This document shows positions 4,825 to 59,672 of a stretch of 64,000 nucleotides of DNA, in pieces. This stretch comes from Escherichia coli 042 (lineage in GTDB: Bacteria > Pseudomonadota > Gammaproteobacteria > Enterobacterales > Enterobacteriaceae): assembly GCF_000027125.1 (NCBI RefSeq), contig NC_017626.1; one strand, 5' to 3'. The translations under genes and the position numbers were made by a program. The notes below the pieces were generated by a model that had not been told where the DNA came from, did no database searches, and saw nothing but the letters and a program-made list of their open reading frames with translations. The number at the start of each line of letters is the position of its first letter. Position 1 is the stretch's first letter.

Positions 4825-6183
4825 TTAAAATTTCAGGGCGTTAGCGATATCTTCTTCGCTCTCTTCTTTATCAATCGCGTTTTGTGCTTTGTTAGCGACC
4901 ACAACAAAGGGCAGATAAATTAACGTTGCGATACCAAGGTTGAAGAGTGCGACCAGCAATGCGGCGACGCTACCGTTGGTGTTAAAGAAGGCTCCCAGAC
5001 CGGTTGGCATGGTCCACGGTGCAATATTGGTCACCGGAGGAATAATGCCCATGTAGTACGCTGCGAGGGTGATTGCCGCCAGAATCGGTTGTACCAGTAC
5101 AAACGGGATAAACATCACCGGGTTCATGATAATTGGCAGACCAAACAGAATCGGTTCGTTAATCTGGAAGATGCCGGACGGCAGCGCCAGTTTTGCCACC
5201 TGACGATAATCAGCACGGCGAGAGGCGATAAAGATAGCCAGGATCAGGCCTAAAGTCGCACCACTGCCACCGAGGAAAATAAAGGAGTCCAGCATCGGCT
5301 TGGCCCAGATATGGAAGGTCTTACCGGCTGCCAGCGCCGCTTCGACGGAACCATATTGCTGATAGGTCGCGATATTTTCCAGCGCCCAAGGCGTCATAAT
5401 GCCGTTGTCCAGTGCGGTCAGCGCCAGCGCACCATGAATACCGAAGAACCAGAGCAGTGGAACAAAGATCACATAGGCCCAGCCCACCACGCTACCCAAC
5501 GATGCCAGTGGGGTTGAGATGGTATCCATAATGATCTGATGGAAGTTGGTGCCCCAGGTATTCAACGCCCAGGCAATAATCCCCATCACGGAAAGAATAA
5601 TAAAGCCGGGAATTAAAGCCGAGAAGGAACGCGATACTGAAGCAGGTACGCTATCGGGCAATTTAATGACCCAATTGCGGCGGACAATAAAGGTAAACAT
5701 TTCTGCCACCACCAGGCCAATAATAATCCCGGAGATGATATTCGCCCCACCTAACCAGTTTGCGCCAACCGCATAGGCCTCACCGACACTATATGGGGTG
5801 ACGGTCATAAATGCTGCAACGGATAACAACCCGGCCGCCAGCGCATCGACTTTACGCTCTTCTGCCAGCGCCATGCCAATAAAGAACGGTGCCATTAAAG
5901 ACATTATCCCTAATGTTCCGTTATATACGTTGCCGCCAATACCTTTCAGACCATTAAGTGTTTCAATGGTTGAGGCATCCAGGCGAATACCTAAGGAATA
6001 AAAAAACGACCCCTCCCCAAAGCTTAGAAAAACGTTGTTAATTAATACAAACATGGCCCCCGCAAGGGTTAACGGCATTAAGCGAATAAAGCCATTTTTG
6101 ATTGCATTAACGTGTGGCTGCTTTCCTATTTTAACTGCAAAAGGGAGGAGTACCTTTTCAAGCGATGCAATAACATTACTCAT
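4825..6183 (-). CDS. chbC: PTS chitobiose-specific EIIC permease
   Basis: 452 aa highly hydrophobic polytopic membrane protein; operon position. Confidence 0.9.
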
Positions 6184-6267
6184 AGAAAAATACCCTTAAA
6201 AACCGCAATTTAAATATTGCGGTATTGATTTATGAAATAACTCTTTGACGGGAAAATTTAAAATAAA

Positions 6268-6588
6268 TTAATTTGCTGCGGCTTTTTTAATCGCTGCAAC
6301 CGCAGCCTTAAGCACGCCTAAACCATCGACTTTGCCATAAAGCAGCGAGTCAATTACTTCAACCGGTTTGTTGGGTAACAAACGCTGGATTTCGGGCAAC
6401 ATATAAGCAATCTGCGGCCCTAATAACACGACATCGGCATTCTGACCTTTTTCACCAGCCAGTGTTTCCGGAAATGCTTCAATAATGACCGGAACTTCAT
6501 ATTTTTCTGCCTGTGCGCGCATTTTTGATACCAGTAAAGAGGTAGACATGCCCGCAGAACAAAACAGATAAATGTGTTTCTTTTCCAT
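6268..6588 (-). CDS. chbB: PTS chitobiose-specific EIIB component
   Basis: 106 aa ORF with N-terminal [17 protein letters not shown] (phospho-cysteine EIIB motif); first gene of operon. Confidence 0.9.
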
Positions 6589-10108: not shown

Positions 10109-10594
10109 TTATTCAGCAGTTGCAGGCATTTTACCTTTTGCCGCTGGACGTTCTGTCAGACGCTTCTCAAAATTAGCATTAAATTGCTTTTTCTGTTCCG
10201 GCGTCAGGATGTTGTAAATCTTGTTCTGGGTTTCCATGTGCGCCAGCATGTTAGCTTTGCGCTGTTCTTCCATTTTTGCGATCTGCGCTTCAGCTTTTGC
10301 TTTATCGAAGGTATCGCTGGCAATGATGTCATGCATTGCGCGGCGTTCTTCCAGCGGCGGACGTTTCATCTGGTCACGCTGGCCTTTCATGATTTCGCGG
10401 ATCTGCTGTTTCTGCGCGTCGGTCAGGTTCAGGTCTTTGAACATCATGTCCTGATGCGGACCGAACTTGCCTTTGTGGTGCATCATCGGCTTCGCGTCAG
10501 CCGGTGCTGCGGTAGTGGTGTCTGCGGCATGGGCCAGGTTAGCCGCGCCAAGAGCCAGGGTAGAGGCAACAAACAGTGCAGTTAATTTACGCAT
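10109..10594 (-). CDS. spy: Periplasmic ATP-independent chaperone Spy
   Basis: 161 aa ORF with signal peptide and charged helical body rich in K/E/Q. Confidence 0.95.
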   Translation of the reverse strand: MRKLTALFVASTLALGAANLAHAADTTTAAPADAKPMMHHKGKFGPHQDMMFKDLNLTDAQKQQIREIMKGQRDQMKRPPLEERRAMHDIIASDTFDKAKAEAQIAKMEEQRKANMLAHMETQNKIYNILTPEQKKQFNANFEKRLTERPAAKGKMPATAE

Positions 10595-10699
10595 ATTCTA
10601 TATCCTTCCTTTCAGTTATTTATTACGGCTTTCTTAAGAAGCGTGCCGTGTTGACGAGATTAACTTTACTGACTTTAGCGTCAATTAATCAGAGCAACG

Positions 10700-10720
10700 G
10701 TAAAACAATGAAAGTGTAAA
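10700..10720. promoter_or_regulatory. Candidate CpxR site in the spy promoter
   Basis: GTAAA-ACAAT-GAAAG-T-GTAAA, an imperfect match to the CpxR tandem GTAAA-N5-GTAAA consensus, about 110 bp upstream of the spy start. Confidence 0.3.
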
Positions 10721-10732
10721 AAACACTTTTGC

Positions 10733-10750
10733 GCCAATTATGGAGAAAAA
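10733..10750 (-). promoter_or_regulatory. BaeR box in the spy promoter
   Basis: Plus strand GCCAATTATGGAGAAAAA; reverse complement TTTTTCTCCATAATTGGC matches the recalled BaeR box consensus TTTTTCTCCATDATTGGC exactly. Confidence 0.6.
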
Positions 10751-10923
10751 AAGAAAATTTGATGGAGAGTGATGAGAAAATATTACAACACGATGATTTT
10801 GCAGAGATTATGAAGAACTATACCGGATGACTGGTGATAAATAAAGCAAATAACCAGGATTAATCTGTATTAATTTATAAGAAAGTAACTTAATACCCGC
10901 AGAATGATTTCTGCGGGTAAGTA

Positions 10924-28738: not shown

Positions 28739-30682
28739 TTAAATCCTTAGCAGACGTTTGCAATTTGCAGCCGTTTGTTCTGCATCCTGGATATCCTGTT
28801 CCGACATTAAGCATCGCAACGCATCTTTTTCAATCCAGGGGTTGTTATTTCCGGCAATTGTTAGCCACATCCATGCTTGTTTATTATCAATTTTAGTGCC
28901 TGTCCCCTGAGCATACATTGCCGCAGTCTGGTGCTGCGCCTCGGTCGACCCTAAACGCGCCGCTTTTTCGTACCAGTGCAGCGCATGATTTTCATCTTTT
29001 ATGGTATCTTTTGTACCGTACAGATACATTTCGGCTAACAAAAATATCGCCTCTATTTGCCCACGCTGCGCTGCACCAGTAATCCATTGAATAGCCTCTG
29101 CGTTATTTTCAGGATCATCATTGTTGGTTAAATAATATTTCCCCAATTCATACATGGCCTCCCCTGCCCCATCTGTCCCATTTTTTGCTACTTTGGTAAA
29201 CCAGTACAGCGCTTTTTCCTGGTCCTGTAGAATACTCTCACTTTCGCTATACAACCTGGCAGTATGATATTGCGCATATAAATATCCCTGTTCTGCTGAT
29301 TGCAAAAGCCAACGATGGGCCTGTACCTTATCACGTGCCACACCAATCCCGTGTATATACATTTGTCCCAAATCATACTGGGCACGCTCATGTCCTTGTG
29401 TGGCGGCAGATAAATACCACCGTAATGCTTCTTCATAATTTCGTAATGGCTCAACAGCGAAGCGTGAGATACGGGCAATCTCATATTGCGCAGATGCGTT
29501 GCCATTTTTGGCAGCAAGTAAAAACCATTTTCGTGCCTCACTAATATTCTTATCCGTGCCCCTTCCATCGCGATACATGATGCCCAGCGCATACTGAGCA
29601 TCGATAACATTATGCTGCGCGGCGCGGGTAAACCAGTTAAAGGCTAATTTTAGATCCTGTGAAACCTCATCACCTTCATAATACATTTTGCCAAGAGAAT
29701 ACCAGGCAAGTGAATAGCCTTGCTCTGCAGCATGTAAGCAGGACTGGAATACAGAAGATGGATAATAAAAAAGACCTTTTAATTTTATGGCATTTAGCAA
29801 CTTTTTATATCCACTATGATGTTGCATTGCTAAATTATTGAAGCGTTCTGTTAATTTCCACTTGCGAATCATTTTTTCTTTTCGCCAGGAATATGATAAA
29901 CGCTCTATTAACAATGCCATATAGTTGTCTGATAGTTCAAATCCAGCGACTTTATTTAATACTGCGATATCAAACCATTTCAGGCTCTCTTCATTATCCT
30001 TTAATGATTGATAAATCGTAGCCATTTCCTTCCCGTTTTCCATTTCTTCCAGTGGAGACGAGTTACTGCCAAAGAAAGGGGTAATTTGTTTTTCGATTCG
30101 TGAATAAAGAAGACAACTTTCGTTAATTTCTGTCTGGATAGCTGGTTGACGGCTGCCTGCAACTAAATGCCATCTGAACGTTTGTGCAGCAGCGAGAGTT
30201 AATAATGGCCGGAATACCCGATGAAGATGCAGTAATAACGCTTCTTCAAAGCTCATTCGTGAGCTGAGATCTTTTTTCTCAAGGAAAGATAACGCCTTAG
30301 CAAGTTGCATGGGGGCGTGTTCGGGGGTTGCTTCATTCTCCTCACAGAGCATATCCAGCACGGCTTGCCAGGTGAATTCCTCCTCTGATTTAATAGTGAC
30401 ATCAGGAAGTGGATGACCAGAAAAGGTGTTGAGTGCGCGAAATGTCATCACAGGACGAGGATGAACAATACCCCTGGATATATTGATCGGTTGCTCTTCT
30501 TCCTCTTCTTGCCACTGATCTTCGTCGTCATAACGTAAAGCCTGTTCATAAGCATCGTGCAATTGTTGCCAGGCTTCGGGAGAATCTTCCGGGCGGCAAT
30601 TTTTTACCAGTTGCGCATAACGACGCTTAATATCTCGTTCTTCCGCGCCAGGTTGTAAACCTAATATTTCCCAGCAGTTCAT
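28739..30682 (-). CDS. J-like domain / Sel1-repeat protein, putative co-chaperone of the adjacent Hsp70
   Basis: ORF track 28739..30697 trimmed to ATG at 30682, which overlaps the upstream Hsp70 stop as ATGA. N-terminus CWEILGLQPGAEERDIKRRYAQLVKNCRPEDSPEAWQQLHDAYEQAL resembles a J domain but has RPE where HPD is expected; acidic linker; C-terminal half contains multiple Sel1-like repeats (AQYALGIMYRDGRGTDKNISEARKWFLLAAKNG, AQYDLGQMYIHGIGVARDKVQAHRWLLQSAEQG). Not a K-12 gene I recognise at this locus. Confidence 0.7.
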   Translation of the reverse strand: MNCWEILGLQPGAEERDIKRRYAQLVKNCRPEDSPEAWQQLHDAYEQALRYDDEDQWQEEEEEQPINISRGIVHPRPVMTFRALNTFSGHPLPDVTIKSEEEFTWQAVLDMLCEENEATPEHAPMQLAKALSFLEKKDLSSRMSFEEALLLHLHRVFRPLLTLAAAQTFRWHLVAGSRQPAIQTEINESCLLYSRIEKQITPFFGSNSSPLEEMENGKEMATIYQSLKDNEESLKWFDIAVLNKVAGFELSDNYMALLIERLSYSWRKEKMIRKWKLTERFNNLAMQHHSGYKKLLNAIKLKGLFYYPSSVFQSCLHAAEQGYSLAWYSLGKMYYEGDEVSQDLKLAFNWFTRAAQHNVIDAQYALGIMYRDGRGTDKNISEARKWFLLAAKNGNASAQYEIARISRFAVEPLRNYEEALRWYLSAATQGHERAQYDLGQMYIHGIGVARDKVQAHRWLLQSAEQGYLYAQYHTARLYSESESILQDQEKALYWFTKVAKNGTDGAGEAMYELGKYYLTNNDDPENNAEAIQWITGAAQRGQIEAIFLLAEMYLYGTKDTIKDENHALHWYEKAARLGSTEAQHQTAAMYAQGTGTKIDNKQAWMWLTIAGNNNPWIEKDALRCLMSEQDIQDAEQTAANCKRLLRI

Positions 30683-32379
30683 TGTAGACGCTCCCATTCC
30701 AGAGAGTCTAATGTCGGTTCAACTTTAGCCCGAAAATCAGCTAGTTGATCAGGATCCTGCTTCTCGAGTAGATAACTGAATTGACGAGAGCAATTGCTTA
30801 TCCAGTCTCGTGTTTCCGCCAGGGTGAGTTGATAGAGATTATCAAGACGGGCAATAAAGGCCTGGTTTATCTGTTCATCGCGTGGGTGAATTTTTAACAG
30901 GCTTAATTTGGACAACGACTGCTGTATTTGTTCTGCCGTTAATGCCCCTGGGTTCTGTTCAATAACCAGACTATTTTTAGCCCCTGTCAGTGGCACGCTG
31001 ATATCGACATCAAGAATACCGTTAATGTCGTACGTAAAACGAACATCAATACGCACATTACCGGCCGGTTTTGGCGGAACATTCACTGACAACTCCGCAA
31101 GGAAAATATTATCACCCACCATCCTGCTTTCACCCTGGTAGATTTTAAAATTAACCTCTGTTTGTTGATCATGTGCCGTATAAAAGGCACGAACGCGACT
31201 ACAAGGAATACTTCGGTTACGCTCAATAACGGGTGCAAAATAGCCTGATTCGCGGGTATGCCCCAGCGATTTAGAGGTATCAACGCCAAGTGTATAAGGG
31301 CAAACATCGGTCACTACTACATCTTGTAATTCGCTGTGCCGCGCTTTAAGTGCGGCCTGAATAGCCGCGCCCTGAGCAATGACTTCATCCGGGTTTAAAT
31401 GCATTGCCGGTATACGACCAAAAAGTTGTGTCACAAGTTTGCGAATCAGCGGCATACGTGTAGTGCCACCCACAAGAACAACCTGGTCTAATTGGCTAAT
31501 ATTAATTTTTGCATCGCGAATTGCCCGTTCCAGTGGCATACGGATTCGCTCGAAAAATGCCTGTAATAAAAATTCAAATTTTTCTGTGGTCAGATGCCAG
31601 TAATATCGCCTTCCTTCAATCTCCACACTGAAAGTTGCTTCGTCACGCATACTAAGCACGCGTTTGACACGCTCAGCCTCAATGCGTAAATGGCGTTGGA
31701 GTGTCGGTTCACGCCATTCAATATTTTCAGGAAGATCCATACGTGAGCAATATGCATCGATCAGGATATCGACAATATCTTCACCACCTAAAAAGTTATC
31801 CCCGGCACTGGCTCGTACTTCCATAATATTGTCAAACAACTCCAGTATGGAGATATCAAACGTACCACCACCTAAATCGAATACCAAAAATTGATGTTCA
31901 TCATCTTTATTATGCAAACCATACGCCAGTGCAGCGGCGGTTGGTTCGTTAATTAAACGTTCGACGTTTAAGCCTGCCATTGAAGCTGCCAATTTTGTTG
32001 CTTTGCGTTGCACATCACCAAAATAAGCAGGTACGCTAATTACTGCTTCTGTTATCTCTTCACCTAAATAGCTTTCAGCATCATCTTTTAGCTGACGCAG
32101 TATCAGCGATGAGAGTTCCTCTGCCCGAAATTCACGTCCGCCCAATTTAAACGTCTTTGATGTGCCCATCATGCGTTTAAAATTGGCTGCACAGTTTTGT
32201 GGTTTGATGAGTTGCAGGTCACGAGCTGCCTCCCCTGTCAAAACCATACCATCTTCGTCAACACAAACTACGCTGGGTGTTAAAAACTTGCCTAACGCAT
32301 TGGGGATCAGTTCACTTTGTCCATTTCGCCATACCGCTGCCAGACTGTTAGTCGTCCCGAGGTCAATACCGATAATCAT
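30679..32379 (-). CDS. Hsp70-family ATPase, HscC-like
   Basis: ORF track 30679..32394 (TTG) trimmed to ATG at 32379 with AAGAGGA Shine-Dalgarno. Hsp70 motifs present: IGIDLGTTNS (phosphate 1), FDLGGGTFD (phosphate 2), VLVGGTTRMP (adenosine), beta-sandwich substrate-binding region VTDVCPYTLGVDT; about 566 aa, shorter than DnaK. Confidence 0.75.
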   Translation of the reverse strand: MIIGIDLGTTNSLAAVWRNGQSELIPNALGKFLTPSVVCVDEDGMVLTGEAARDLQLIKPQNCAANFKRMMGTSKTFKLGGREFRAEELSSLILRQLKDDAESYLGEEITEAVISVPAYFGDVQRKATKLAASMAGLNVERLINEPTAAALAYGLHNKDDEHQFLVFDLGGGTFDISILELFDNIMEVRASAGDNFLGGEDIVDILIDAYCSRMDLPENIEWREPTLQRHLRIEAERVKRVLSMRDEATFSVEIEGRRYYWHLTTEKFEFLLQAFFERIRMPLERAIRDAKINISQLDQVVLVGGTTRMPLIRKLVTQLFGRIPAMHLNPDEVIAQGAAIQAALKARHSELQDVVVTDVCPYTLGVDTSKSLGHTRESGYFAPVIERNRSIPCSRVRAFYTAHDQQTEVNFKIYQGESRMVGDNIFLAELSVNVPPKPAGNVRIDVRFTYDINGILDVDISVPLTGAKNSLVIEQNPGALTAEQIQQSLSKLSLLKIHPRDEQINQAFIARLDNLYQLTLAETRDWISNCSRQFSYLLEKQDPDQLADFRAKVEPTLDSLEWERLQ

Positions 32380-32394
32380 AATTATCCTCTTCAA

Positions 32395-32560
32395 ATAAAT
32401 GAACTGATCATTTTATAGAGCAGTTATATATATTCATTTTGTGAATAATGTTCACAATCCCTGCGTTTAAAAATAATTTATAATGATGCAATCCATAACA
32501 TAACTTACGTGAATATAAAGATATTTCGTTTATAATTTTAGCTGTGGGTACTTATATCAT
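32395..32560 (-). promoter_or_regulatory. AT-rich upstream region, presumed promoter of the Hsp70 operon
   Basis: About 165 bp of very AT-rich sequence immediately upstream of the Hsp70 start; typical of promoters of horizontally acquired genes and of H-NS-bound DNA; no specific -35/-10 assigned. Confidence 0.3.
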
Positions 32561-32574
32561 ATACTCTAAATAAT

Positions 32575-32770
32575 TCGATTTGTAGGAAGGCAGCAAGTAA
32601 GTGAATCCCGAGGAGCTTACATAAGTAAGTGACTGGGCTGAACGACAAATCCGCATGGAGCGGATTTGAACGCTGCTTTCAGCGGCCCCGTAAGGGGTGA
32701 GGCCCATGGATGGGCCGAATAACCCGCAGACGCAGCACATGCAACTTGAAGCATGACGAGTATAACCAAT
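32575..32770. other. GC-rich structured non-coding segment (candidate small RNA or gene remnant)
   Basis: No convincing ORF; direct repeat AAGTAAGTGA twice 30 bp apart (32596-32605, 32623-32632); hairpins AATCCGC-ATGGAG-CGGATTT, CCCC-GTAA-GGGG (GNRA-type loop) and GGCCC-ATGGAT-GGGCC; followed by the 32771-32808 terminator hairpin. Confidence 0.25.
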
Positions 32771-32808
32771 AAAGCCAATGGCGGAATATCTACCATTGGC
32801 TTTGTTTT
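32771..32808. terminator. Hairpin terminator between topB and the structured segment
   Basis: AAAGCCAATGG-loop-CCATTGGCTTT followed by GTTTT on the plus strand and preceded by an A-rich run, so it could terminate plus-strand transcripts and, less efficiently, topB. Confidence 0.5.
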
Positions 32809-32823
32809 AGAGTGGAAAACGAA

Positions 32824-34770
32824 TTAATTAGCAGAATCCGTATTATCTTTTTTGGGCTTTGCCGCTTTTTTCACACGATTATTGGGTGCTTTTTTAACAG
32901 CCCCCCCACCTGGTGCCACAATTCCTCTAAACCGTCTGACCGGAGTGCTACGAGCCTGATCAATCAGTTGGTAAAGCGTCCCCACCAACGGCTGCATAAA
33001 GTCCTGATAGCGACACTGCTTTTCGCTGATTTGCGTCAGCACCGATTCCCAGTGCGCGGTCATGTCCGGTCTCGTTGCCATCTCCGGCAGCGAATGGAAT
33101 AACGCTTTTCCAGCGTCGGTGGAGTGGATATAGCGCCCTTTTTTGGTCAGGAAACCACGCTTGAACAACAGTTCAATAATCCCGGCACGTGTTGCTTCTG
33201 TCCCCAGACCATCGGTAGCACGGAGGATCTTTTTCAGATCTTTGTCCTGCACAAAGCGCGCGATCCCGGTCATCGCCGAAAGCAGTGTTGCATCGGTAAA
33301 ATGGCGCGGCGGCTGCGTTTGCCGCTCTACCACTTCACCTTTTTCACACAGCAACTCATCGCCTTTCGCCACCACAGGCAGCGGCGTGCCATCGTTTTCT
33401 TCATCGCGCTCTTTGCTGCCTAACAGCGTGCGCCAGCCTGCTTCGGCAAGAAAACGGGCTTTAGCGACAAATTTACCTTTGGCTATTTCCAGTTCGATAA
33501 CACACTTGCGGAACACCGCATCCGGGCAGAACTGCATCAGGTATTGACGAGCAATCAGGTTATAGACCTTCGATTCGTTCTCCGTCAGGTTGATCGCAGA
33601 ACTCCGTGCGGTCGGGATGATGGCGTGGTGCGCATCGACCTTTTTGTCATCCCAGCAGCGGTTGCGTATATCTGGATCGACCACTGGCTGCGGTAACAAC
33701 CCCGGTGCATGAACGCTGATGGCATTCATCACTGCGTGGCGTCCGGCAAAATGCTCTTCCGGCAGATAGCGACAATCGGAACGCGGATAAGTGATTAGCT
33801 TGTGCGTTTCGTACAACTTCTGGCAGATATCAAGCACGTTCTGCGCACTCAGACCAAAGCGTTTTGCCGCTTCAATCTGCAACGCCGAAAGCGAAAACGG
33901 CAGCGGTGCGGATTCTGATTCCCGTTTATCGTTATAGCTGGTGACTATAGCCGGTTGACCACTAATGCGGTTAACCACATGCTCCGCCAGTGGACGATGT
34001 AACAAGCGCCCTTCTTCATCCTGGTACGGTTCACACGCTTCGCTCGGTTGCCAGATAGCGGTAAACCGCTCATCGGCAGGTGTCACGATATGTGCTTTGA
34101 CTTCAAAGAAGTCTTTCGCCACGAAGTTTTCAATCTCTTCGTCGCGGCGCACTACCAGCCCGAGCACGGGCGTCTGCACGCGTCCCACGGAAAGCACGCC
34201 CTGATAACCCGCATTGCGACCGAGAATGGTGTAAGCGCGGGTCATATTGATTCCGTACAGCCAGTCGGCTCGGGCTCGCGCCAGTGCAGAAACGCACAAC
34301 GGCACAAACTCACTGTTGGAACGAAGACGATCGATCGCCCGCTCAACCGCCTGCGGGTTCAGGTCGTTTATCAAGCAACGCTGCACCTGCTGGCGCTTTT
34401 CCGGTGCCAGTTGCAGATAGTCCAGCACTTCATCCACCAGTAATTGCCCTTCGCGATCCGGGTCACCGGCGTGAACGATTTCGCTGGCTTCATGCAGGAA
34501 GCGTTTGATGACATTAAGTTGTTTAGTCACGGAGGGTCGGGGCTGTAATTGCCACTTTTCCGGGACAATCGGCAAATCCGCAAGATTCCAGCGCGCATAG
34601 CGGCTGTCGTAGGCGTCTGGCTGCGCCTGCTCAAGCAGGTGACCGATACACCAGGTCACTACCTGACCATTACCGCACTCGATAAAGCCATCGCCTTTCC
34701 GGTGCGGTTTGGGCAGGACATCAGCAATGGCGCGCGCCAGACTCGGTTTTTCGGCAATAAACAACCGCAT
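32824..34770 (-). CDS. topB: DNA topoisomerase III
   Basis: ORF track 32824..34827 trimmed to ATG at 34770 ([19 protein letters not shown], Toprim N-terminus), 4 bp after the selD stop; gives 648 aa. Confidence 0.9.
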
Positions 34771-58050: not shown

Positions 58051-58196
58051 AACTATCAGCCGGGTCATTATCGCCTGGCTGATTTTTAGCTCACTGTAAA
58101 TTATCTCATTTATTACATACATTAGCTTACAATCGCTTTAAATATGACAGCATAACCTTTACACAATTTAGTTCCAGAAAACAATCATTCGGAAAA

Positions 58197-59672
58197 ATGA
58201 TTCGGTCAACACGTGTTTCCCTGGGGTTATTCTTTAAATATTTTTTATCGTTAACGAAAATTGATCCTGGTCAAAACTATATATCTCTGCCATCAATAAA
58301 ATCCAGCACTCACATTGCTCTCCTTTTTATGGCTTCTATGGGTACACAAAAATTAAAAGCTCAAGGCTTTTTTATTTTCAGCTTATTGCTGACGTTAATT
58401 TTATTTTGCATTACTACCTTATATAACGAAAACACGAATGTAAAACTCATCCCACAGATGAATTACCTGATGGTTGTTGTGGCTTTGTTTTTCCTTAACG
58501 CCGTCATTTTTCTTTTCATGTTAATGAAGTATTTCACTAACAAACAAATTTTACCAACACTCATTTTAAGCCTTGCATTTTTAAGTGGCCTTATCTATTT
58601 AGTTGAAACCATTGTAATTATCCATAAACCAATCAACGGCAGTACACTGATCCAGACAAAGTCGAATGATGTTTCTATTTTCTATATTTTCCGCCAACTC
58701 AGTTTCATTTGTTTAACCTCGCTGGCGCTCTTTTGTTATGGGAAAGACAACATCCTTGACAACAATAAGAAAAAAACTGGCATTCTGTTACTGGCGCTGA
58801 TTCCTTTTTTAGTTTTTCCCCTTCTGGCACACAATCTGAGCAGTTATAACGCTGACTATTCTTTGTATGTCGTCGATTACTGTCCGGACAACCATACTGC
58901 GACCTGGGGAATCAACTATACAAAAATATTGGTTTGTCTGTGGGCATTTTTACTGTTCTTTATTATCATGCGTACACGATTAGCCAGCGAACTATGGCCG
59001 TTAATAGCATTATTATGTCTGGCATCGCTATGCTGCAACTTACTTCTACTAACTCTGGATGAGTATAATTACACCATCTGGTATATCAGTCGCGGGATTG
59101 AAGTCTCCAGTAAACTGTTTGTTGTGTCTTTTCTGATTTATAACATTTTTCAGGAACTGCAACTCTCCAGCAAACTGGCAGTTCATGATGTGCTGACCAA
59201 TATTTATAATCGGCGCTACTTTTTCAACAGCGTAGAGTCATTATTGTCGCGACCTGTTGTTAAGGACTTCTGTGTCATGCTGGTTGATATTAATCAGTTC
59301 AAACGCATCAATGCCCAATGGGGACATCGTGTGGGTGATAAAGTGCTGGTTTCAATTGTCGATATTATCCAGCAAAGCATCCGCCCCGATGATATTTTAG
59401 CGCGACTGGAGGGTGAGGTGTTTGGCTTGCTATTTACCGAACTCAATAGTGCCCAGGCAAAAATCATTGCGGAACGTATGCGTAAAAATGTCGAACTCCT
59501 GACCGGCTTTAGTAACAGATATGATGTTCCTGAGCAAATGACCATCAGTATTGGCACGGTTTTTTCAACGGGTGACACACGTAATATCTCGCTTGTCATG
59601 ACGGAAGCAGATAAAGCCTTACGCGAAGCGAAAAGCGAGGGGGGCAACAAAGTGATTATTCATCATATTTAA
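58197..59672 (+). CDS. yeaI: Membrane-anchored degenerate GGDEF-domain protein
   Basis: 491 aa ORF; hydrophobic N-terminal half; C-terminal GGDEF-type domain in which the signature reads EGEVF (ARLEGEVFGLLF); notably AT-rich gene. Confidence 0.85.
   Translation: MIRSTRVSLGLFFKYFLSLTKIDPGQNYISLPSIKSSTHIALLFMASMGTQKLKAQGFFIFSLLLTLILFCITTLYNENTNVKLIPQMNYLMVVVALFFLNAVIFLFMLMKYFTNKQILPTLILSLAFLSGLIYLVETIVIIHKPINGSTLIQTKSNDVSIFYIFRQLSFICLTSLALFCYGKDNILDNNKKKTGILLLALIPFLVFPLLAHNLSSYNADYSLYVVDYCPDNHTATWGINYTKILVCLWAFLLFFIIMRTRLASELWPLIALLCLASLCCNLLLLTLDEYNYTIWYISRGIEVSSKLFVVSFLIYNIFQELQLSSKLAVHDVLTNIYNRRYFFNSVESLLSRPVVKDFCVMLVDINQFKRINAQWGHRVGDKVLVSIVDIIQQSIRPDDILARLEGEVFGLLFTELNSAQAKIIAERMRKNVELLTGFSNRYDVPEQMTISIGTVFSTGDTRNISLVMTEADKALREAKSEGGNKVIIHHI

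Follow-up and report, generated by a model that had tools for sequence, protein, structure and literature searches.

The window analyzed here, a 64-kb stretch of Escherichia coli 042 DNA, carries a strain-variable cassette of ~4.2 kb between gdhA and topB (28684-32908). Homology to strain K-12 extends up to the gdhA stop codon (28683) and is restored only at 32909, within the 3' end of topB. The cassette therefore includes the last ~85 nt of topB (32824-32908), encoding a lysine-rich C-terminal tail that is unlike that of K-12; the topB end of strain CFT073 represents a third version. In K-12 the place of the cassette is taken by ynjI, an unrelated gene of the DUF1266 family. The GC content of the cassette is 43%, compared with 52-54% in the flanks. 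The cassette is present in about 300-400 of 5,426 complete E. coli genomes (about 7%), and the segment 28600-33000 (4.4 kb compared) is 100% identical to that of strain Ecol_316. Beyond E. coli, Klebsiella has the nearest relatives (75-78%); those of Pseudomonas, Massilia and others are more distant (about 55%). Plasmid and phage searches with the cassette returned generic Hsp70 matches only; the cassette itself was not found there, and a plasmid- or phage-borne (mobile) origin was set aside on this ground. Absence from K-12, low GC content, absence from plasmids and phages, and a scattered set of relatives together indicate that the cassette is accessory, horizontally exchanged DNA.

Both genes of the cassette are encoded on the minus strand. 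The first (30679-32379) codes for a 566-aa Hsp70 protein (Pfam HSP70, E = 1e-137) that shares 43% identity with K-12 HscC across its full length. Its relatives bear the NCBI name HscC, and the protein scores under the equivalog cut-offs for DnaK and HscA; on this evidence we assign it to the HscC subfamily, with a DjlC-like J protein encoded next to it. A ribosome-binding site, GAGGAT (32384-32389, minus strand), can be read from the sequence 4 nt before the ATG at 32379, a start codon that agrees with RefSeq. The second gene (28739-30682 in RefSeq coordinates) codes for a 647-aa protein (Pfam DnaJ and Sel1) that combines an N-terminal J domain, which resembles DjlC (35% identity), with seven Sel1 repeats, a region that resembles YbeQ. 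The start codon of this gene and the stop codon of hsp70 overlap in the sequence ATGA. Thus, the operon consists of two accessory genes, for an HscC-type Hsp70 and for a translationally coupled J-domain/Sel1 co-chaperone.

The J motif of the co-chaperone reads RPE instead of the canonical HPD (30580-30600, codons about 29-31). Stimulation of the Hsp70 ATPase is generally held to require the histidine of HPD. RPE is kept in the E. coli cassette, in Klebsiella and in a lineage with 87% protein identity to the cassette, whereas K-12 DjlB and DjlC carry HPE. PADLOC models gave only marginal, partial matches to the cassette proteins (18 and 21 bits, E = 2e-4 and 3e-5), and an identity as an anti-phage defence system was rejected for this reason. 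For two HscC-like paralogues, with 66% and 60% identity to the query, the longest contig given is in both cases 56,107 bp, which suggests tandem or clustered HscC-like modules in another organism.

Between topB and hsp70 lies a spacer (32380-32823) in which, in the direction of transcription, the topB stop codon is followed by a terminator, an ERIC element and the AT-rich tract. The terminator hairpin (32771-32803, minus strand), a 12-bp stem followed by UUUAUU, folds at -18.9 kcal/mol (z = -4.4), an energy equalled by none of 200 shuffles, and is kept in all cassette variants. Read-through from topB would be halted at this strong terminator, and the operon must therefore have a promoter of its own in the ERIC element or in the AT-rich tract. 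Within the ERIC repeat (32560-32764; TATACTC...GAGTATA), positions 32647-32724 are a nested insertion of 78 bp. The two classical ERIC primer sequences have one-off matches at 32601-32644, where the chance expectation is 0. The element has a GC content of 49% and folds at -70.9 kcal/mol (z = -3.8). It is polymorphic among cassette variants: the site is empty in KL53, occupied by a plain ERIC in BH100, and enlarged in the window copy by the 78-bp insertion, which forms multiple hairpins. Thus, two successive insertions are visible at one locus.

The AT-rich tract proper (32380-32559, ~25% GC), which we regard as the 5' regulatory and leader region of the minus-strand hsp70-J operon, is bounded by the hsp70 ATG and the ERIC edge. 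A preliminary description of this DNA had given the interval as 32395-32560. The tract indeed lies 5' of the Hsp70 gene, but the start codon is the ATG at 32379 rather than the TTG at 32394; the other end of that interval, 32560, is the ERIC edge, which sets the limits of the tract proper. The exceptional AT-richness claimed for it is confirmed. The GC content of 32395-32560 (166 bp) is 24.7% (75.3% AT) against 49.4% across the window, and no other place in the window is as GC-poor over this length; in a scan of all 166-bp segments only 0.07% are this GC-poor, every one of them overlapping the tract, with a minimum of 22.9% at 32372-32537. The long A/T runs mentioned in the same description exist as mixed runs, the longest A/T-only run being 19 bp (32466-32484) and others 8-12 bp, but single-base homopolymers are short: four runs of at least 4 bases of pure A or T, the longest of 5. 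The density of TpA steps falls in the 99.8th percentile of the window. Compared with 23 other intergenic spacers, the tract has the lowest local GC content (22% in its lowest 100 bp). The margin is modest, as four other spacers of the window get down to 27-28% GC in their lowest 100-bp stretch, and the tract is therefore the extreme of a continuum and not a separate class.

Other GC-poor DNA in the window includes a second patch of 29.5% GC at 29748-29913, inside the J-protein gene, which corresponds to the uncharacterized region of the protein between the J domain and the Sel1 repeats. Three more stretches have at most 30% GC (6126-6291, 10715-10880 and 58082-58262), two of them within intergenic spacers (10586-10923 and 58051-58196).

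By comparing divergence among three cassette variants (the window, BH100 and KL53), we divided the tract into two parts. The proximal segment (32380-32457, minus strand), 78 bp from a palindrome to the ATG, includes this palindrome, a -10-like TATAAA and the ribosome-binding site, and is 0-3.8% divergent, compared with 10.6-12% at the third codon positions of hsp70; the first 150 nt of hsp70 already show 8-11 differences among the variants. The distal AT-rich segment (32458-32559, minus strand; ~104 bp in the comparison) is lineage-specific, diverges by 4.8-12.5% and drifts at about the neutral rate. Since constraint is confined to the proximal ~75 bp, the tract does not form a single functional element over its full length. 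The cassette is plastic in other respects as well: BH100 has two tandem J-domain/Sel1 genes, the J gene of KL53 has an internal stop, and NH-21 carries an IS1 in the distal tract, immediately upstream of the palindrome, and has lost hsp70 along with the N-terminus of the J protein.

A three-gene version of the cassette was found in 96 genomes, among them CFT073, Nissle 1917 and ATCC 25922. The extra gene of CFT073 (C_RS10235), located upstream of hsp70, has 34% GC and codes for a 266-aa signal-peptide protein without a Pfam match; it occupies the place of the distal tract and the ERIC element of the window. Homology between the window and CFT073 starts at 32452 and extends into hsp70, covering the proximal 73 bp of the tract, which is thus the counterpart of the CFT073 intercistronic spacer. 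The stop codon of the 266-aa gene is followed by a terminator-like hairpin, ATGGTGGT-N6-ACCACCAT. The literature on the CFT073 locus tags yielded a single comment, on gene orientation.

The lineage with 87% protein identity, in which the module is also located beside gdhA, has a CFT073-like spacer with a different palindrome, ATGGTGGT-N6-ACCACCAT. Its J protein is longer (763 aa), and its two independent assemblies both break off ~70 bp ahead of hsp70, a sign of a repeat or a low-coverage AT-rich stretch at that point. In Klebsiella, the spacer of the orthologue is unrelated in sequence and has 34.5% GC. Cross-genus footprinting was abandoned, the Klebsiella upstream region being unrelated and that of the 87%-identity lineage CFT073-like. 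Thus, the DNA upstream of hsp70 is modular and subject to fast turnover.

A strict scan of 32300-32900 for the sigma-70 consensus found no promoter, and a scan of the minus strand with a sigma-70 positional weight matrix (PWM) gave nothing above shuffled sequence (best score 9.4 against a shuffle mean of 11.2). Two candidates can nevertheless be named. The proximal one is the -10-like TATAAA at 32412-32417 (minus strand; overlapping TAAAAT at 32410-32415), which is the best minus-strand PWM match upstream of the ribosome-binding site and is kept in all variants, without a good -35. The distal candidate is an extended -10-like element, TGaTATAAG (32551-32559, minus strand; PWM score 7.9, TG present), at the ERIC junction; all four sequences compared carry TATGATATAA unchanged at this place. 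On the plus strand lies the highest-scoring sigma-70-like match of the tract (32509-32536, GTGAAT-N16-TATAAT, score 11.3). It is directed away from hsp70, toward the ERIC element and antisense to topB, and may be a spurious promoter of the kind made by AT-rich DNA.

The preliminary description had likened the tract to H-NS-silenced promoters of acquired genes and had suggested that the operon is normally repressed. The likeness holds with respect to the accessory nature of the cassette and to a base composition of the kind that H-NS prefers, AT content being above average (24-25% GC in the tract) and TpA steps abundant; it does not extend to the finer signals of H-NS binding. The sequence tCGATAAATT, reportedly described by Lang et al. 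in 2007 as a high-affinity H-NS nucleation motif, has a single match in the tract, with two mismatches (32410-32419), and its density there is near the window average. Likewise, the AA/TT dinucleotides of the tract show no 10-11 bp periodicity, that is, no sign of A-tract phasing or curvature. Curvature and phased A-tracts are frequent at H-NS targets, but not obligatory. Moreover, H-NS binding is said, in work by Navarre (2006), Lucchini (2006) and Gordon (2011), to follow AT content and TpA steps and not a strict motif. A further point against silencing is the length of the AT-extreme part, only ~180 bp next to a 49%-GC ERIC element; K-12 ChIP studies indicate that H-NS patches of small extent often cause no silencing.

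Further evidence for silencing comes by analogy from paralogous loci and from the alternative allele of the slot. The tract is more AT-rich than the spacers of the K-12 hscC cluster (29-33% GC), in which ybeT and ybeU-djlC are listed as members of the H-NS regulon and as induced by SlyA, an antagonist of H-NS (PMC5797941). At 25 C, an hns mutation raises a DUF1266 gene of EAEC 042 by 308-fold (PMC7582179); going only by its locus-tag number, this gene would belong to the hscC cluster. For K-12 ynjI, a moderate increase in the hns stpA background has been published, along with activation by BglJ-RcsB (PMC3950696); in the tract, no exact match to the BglJ-RcsB motif fragment wwTTCykA was seen by eye, this being a fragment and not the full motif. 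Finally, proteomics of K-12 does not detect HscC, DjlB or DjlC (PMC8215388).

From the extreme AT content, the many TpA steps and the 43% GC of the cassette, occupancy of the tract by H-NS/StpA with low basal expression emerges as the most likely reading. The tract probably belongs to the H-NS type of AT-rich promoter regions that precede acquired operons, and we consider it reasonably likely that H-NS/StpA occupies it and keeps basal expression low, as for the paralogous hscC cluster. The tract would then serve as the 5' regulatory and leader region of the two-gene operon, composed of a conserved proximal ~75 bp (translation initiation, the -10-like element and the palindrome) and a freely drifting distal ~100 bp. 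With topB read-through halted at the terminator, the operon would depend on its own promoter, weak by sigma-70 criteria, at either the extended -10 (32551-32559) or the TATAAA (32412-32417). H-NS/StpA bound to the tract would keep basal expression low, and relief could come through an H-NS antagonist or a palindrome-binding factor. A point against this explanation is that the sigma-70 matches of the tract are no better than those of shuffled sequence.

Silencing has to be weighed first against an ordinary, weak or constitutive promoter region, in which the AT-richness would reflect the low-GC origin of the cassette and relaxed non-coding constraint, with no specific role for H-NS. The near-neutral drift of the distal ~100 bp, the 27-28% GC reached by other spacers of the window, the unrelated 34.5%-GC spacer of the Klebsiella orthologue, and the lack of a nucleation motif or A-tract phasing in the tract would all fit such a region. 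Yet the AT content of the tract exceeds that of the paralogous-cluster promoters that are listed in the H-NS regulon, HscC-type proteins are not detectably expressed in K-12, and H-NS binding is said, as noted above, to follow AT content and TpA steps and not a strict motif. We therefore regard an ordinary promoter as possible but somewhat unlikely.

Another explanation starts from the palindrome of the proximal segment, a perfect inverted repeat TTGTGAA-N5-TTCACAA (32439-32457) and a possible operator of uncertain significance. If it were the operator of a specific transcription factor that exerts the main control, with or without H-NS, this factor could be a repressor, or else an activator whose site has its centre at about -43 to -45 relative to the TATAAA promoter. 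The repeat is unique in the window, invariant in the three intact variants and located within the constrained segment, beside a -10-like element that has no -35. However, we estimate that about 0.5 inverted repeats of 7 bp are expected by chance per 180 bp of 75% AT DNA, and the palindrome spans the CFT073 homology breakpoint at 32452. It is intact neither in CFT073 nor in the 87%-identity lineage, where another palindrome is present, and no regulator is encoded in the cassette. Two known sites were also rejected by spacing: the repeat reads TGTGA-N7-TCACA, and CRP needs N6; it also reads TGAA-N5-TTCA, and the ARG box has a spacing of N6. As an RNA hairpin the palindrome folds at -5.3 kcal/mol (z = -2.2). 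Control mainly through this operator seems unlikely to us.

The tract could also be a decayed remnant of the gene for the 266-aa signal-peptide protein, carrying the old promoter of that gene. The 34%-GC gene of CFT073 and Nissle 1917 sits exactly at the position of the tract and the ERIC element, and the proximal 73 bp are homologous to the spacer behind it. On the other hand, neither the CFT073 gene nor the region upstream of it matches the distal tract significantly (all E above 0.9), and the tract extends just ~100 bp past the CFT073 breakpoint. We consider such an origin very unlikely.

An induction of the operon by stress or infection, as proposed in the preliminary description, is not supported, since neither a stress-sigma promoter nor an RNA thermometer was found. 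Searches of the tract for sigma-32, sigma-E, sigma-54 and sigma-28 promoters returned none. In particular, the sigma-32 heat-shock promoter (CTTGAAA-N11-16-CCCCATNT) has no match in the tract and one chance-level match inside the ERIC insertion. An RNA thermometer or structured 5' UTR governing translation of a heat-shock-type gene is highly improbable: a small hairpin could form at the start codon (GATAAT-UAUG-AUUAUC) and the Shine-Dalgarno GAGG could pair with CCUC of codons 8-9, but the leader folds no better than shuffles (z from -0.2 to -1.1), Klebsiella, the 87%-identity lineage and CFT073 do not retain these elements, and Rfam has no match to the leader. As far as sequence can tell, nothing ties the operon to heat shock or to another defined stress.

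The AT-rich leader of an acquired operon is a feature of a well-known kind, and the present instance is undescribed and unsurprising. If H-NS silencing of the operon is true, it adds one more accessory operon to the xenogeneic-silencing regulon and suggests that HscC-type Hsp70 systems are generally off under laboratory conditions. Such silence may explain why the function of these systems is still unclear, in line with the undetectable HscC, DjlB and DjlC of K-12. The practical value is modest, namely a defined promoter region whose 75-bp core is conserved, together with a natural allele series (with and without ERIC, with and without IS1, and the three-gene version) that can be used to find what activates such chaperone modules. 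The tract itself raises no new question, and any novelty still to be expected lies in the gene cassette rather than in the tract.

With regard to the cassette, one could speculate that the gdhA-topB slot is a swap site that accepts either HscC-type modules (Hsp70, the RPE-type J/Sel1 protein and sometimes the secreted 266-aa protein) or the DUF1266 gene ynjI, the modules being silenced by H-NS via AT-rich leaders and switched on by dedicated antagonists such as SlyA, LeuO or BglJ-RcsB. We hold this to be quite improbable; if true, the modules of the slot would constitute an undescribed exchangeable accessory system and not housekeeping chaperones, with roles in, for example, envelope stress or inter-bacterial or phage conflict. 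Neither the J protein nor the extra protein of CFT073 resembled YnjI convincingly, and a common ancestry of these slot occupants was rejected on that basis.

Among known systems, the neighbour of the tract agrees with ERIC elements in its primer matches, terminal inverted repeats, empty-site polymorphism and strong fold; it differs from the plain ERIC of BH100 by the nested 78-bp insertion, and it adjoins the AT-rich tract while lying outside it. The K-12 ynjI promoter has the same chromosomal position and orientation as the tract, directly after the topB terminator. Its sequence is unrelated, however, with a 127-bp spacer that is less AT-rich and serves an unrelated protein, and the tract shows no residual homology to this promoter.

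The closest parallel in gene content is the K-12 hscC cluster (ybeQ-ybeR-djlB-ybeT-ybeU-djlC-hscC), which shares with the cassette an HscC-type Hsp70 (43%), a DjlC-like J domain, YbeQ-like Sel1 repeats and AT-rich spacers. [quoted passage not shown] With respect to regulation, the tract differs from H-NS/StpA-silenced promoters (bgl, leuO and K-12 ybeT/ybeU-djlC) in having neither a high-affinity nucleation motif nor A-tract phasing and in the shortness of its AT-extreme part (~180 bp). In common with these promoters, the tract is AT-extreme and TpA-rich, is located in a low-GC accessory cassette, and has weak core promoter elements, and H-NS effects have been published for its paralogous and allelic loci.
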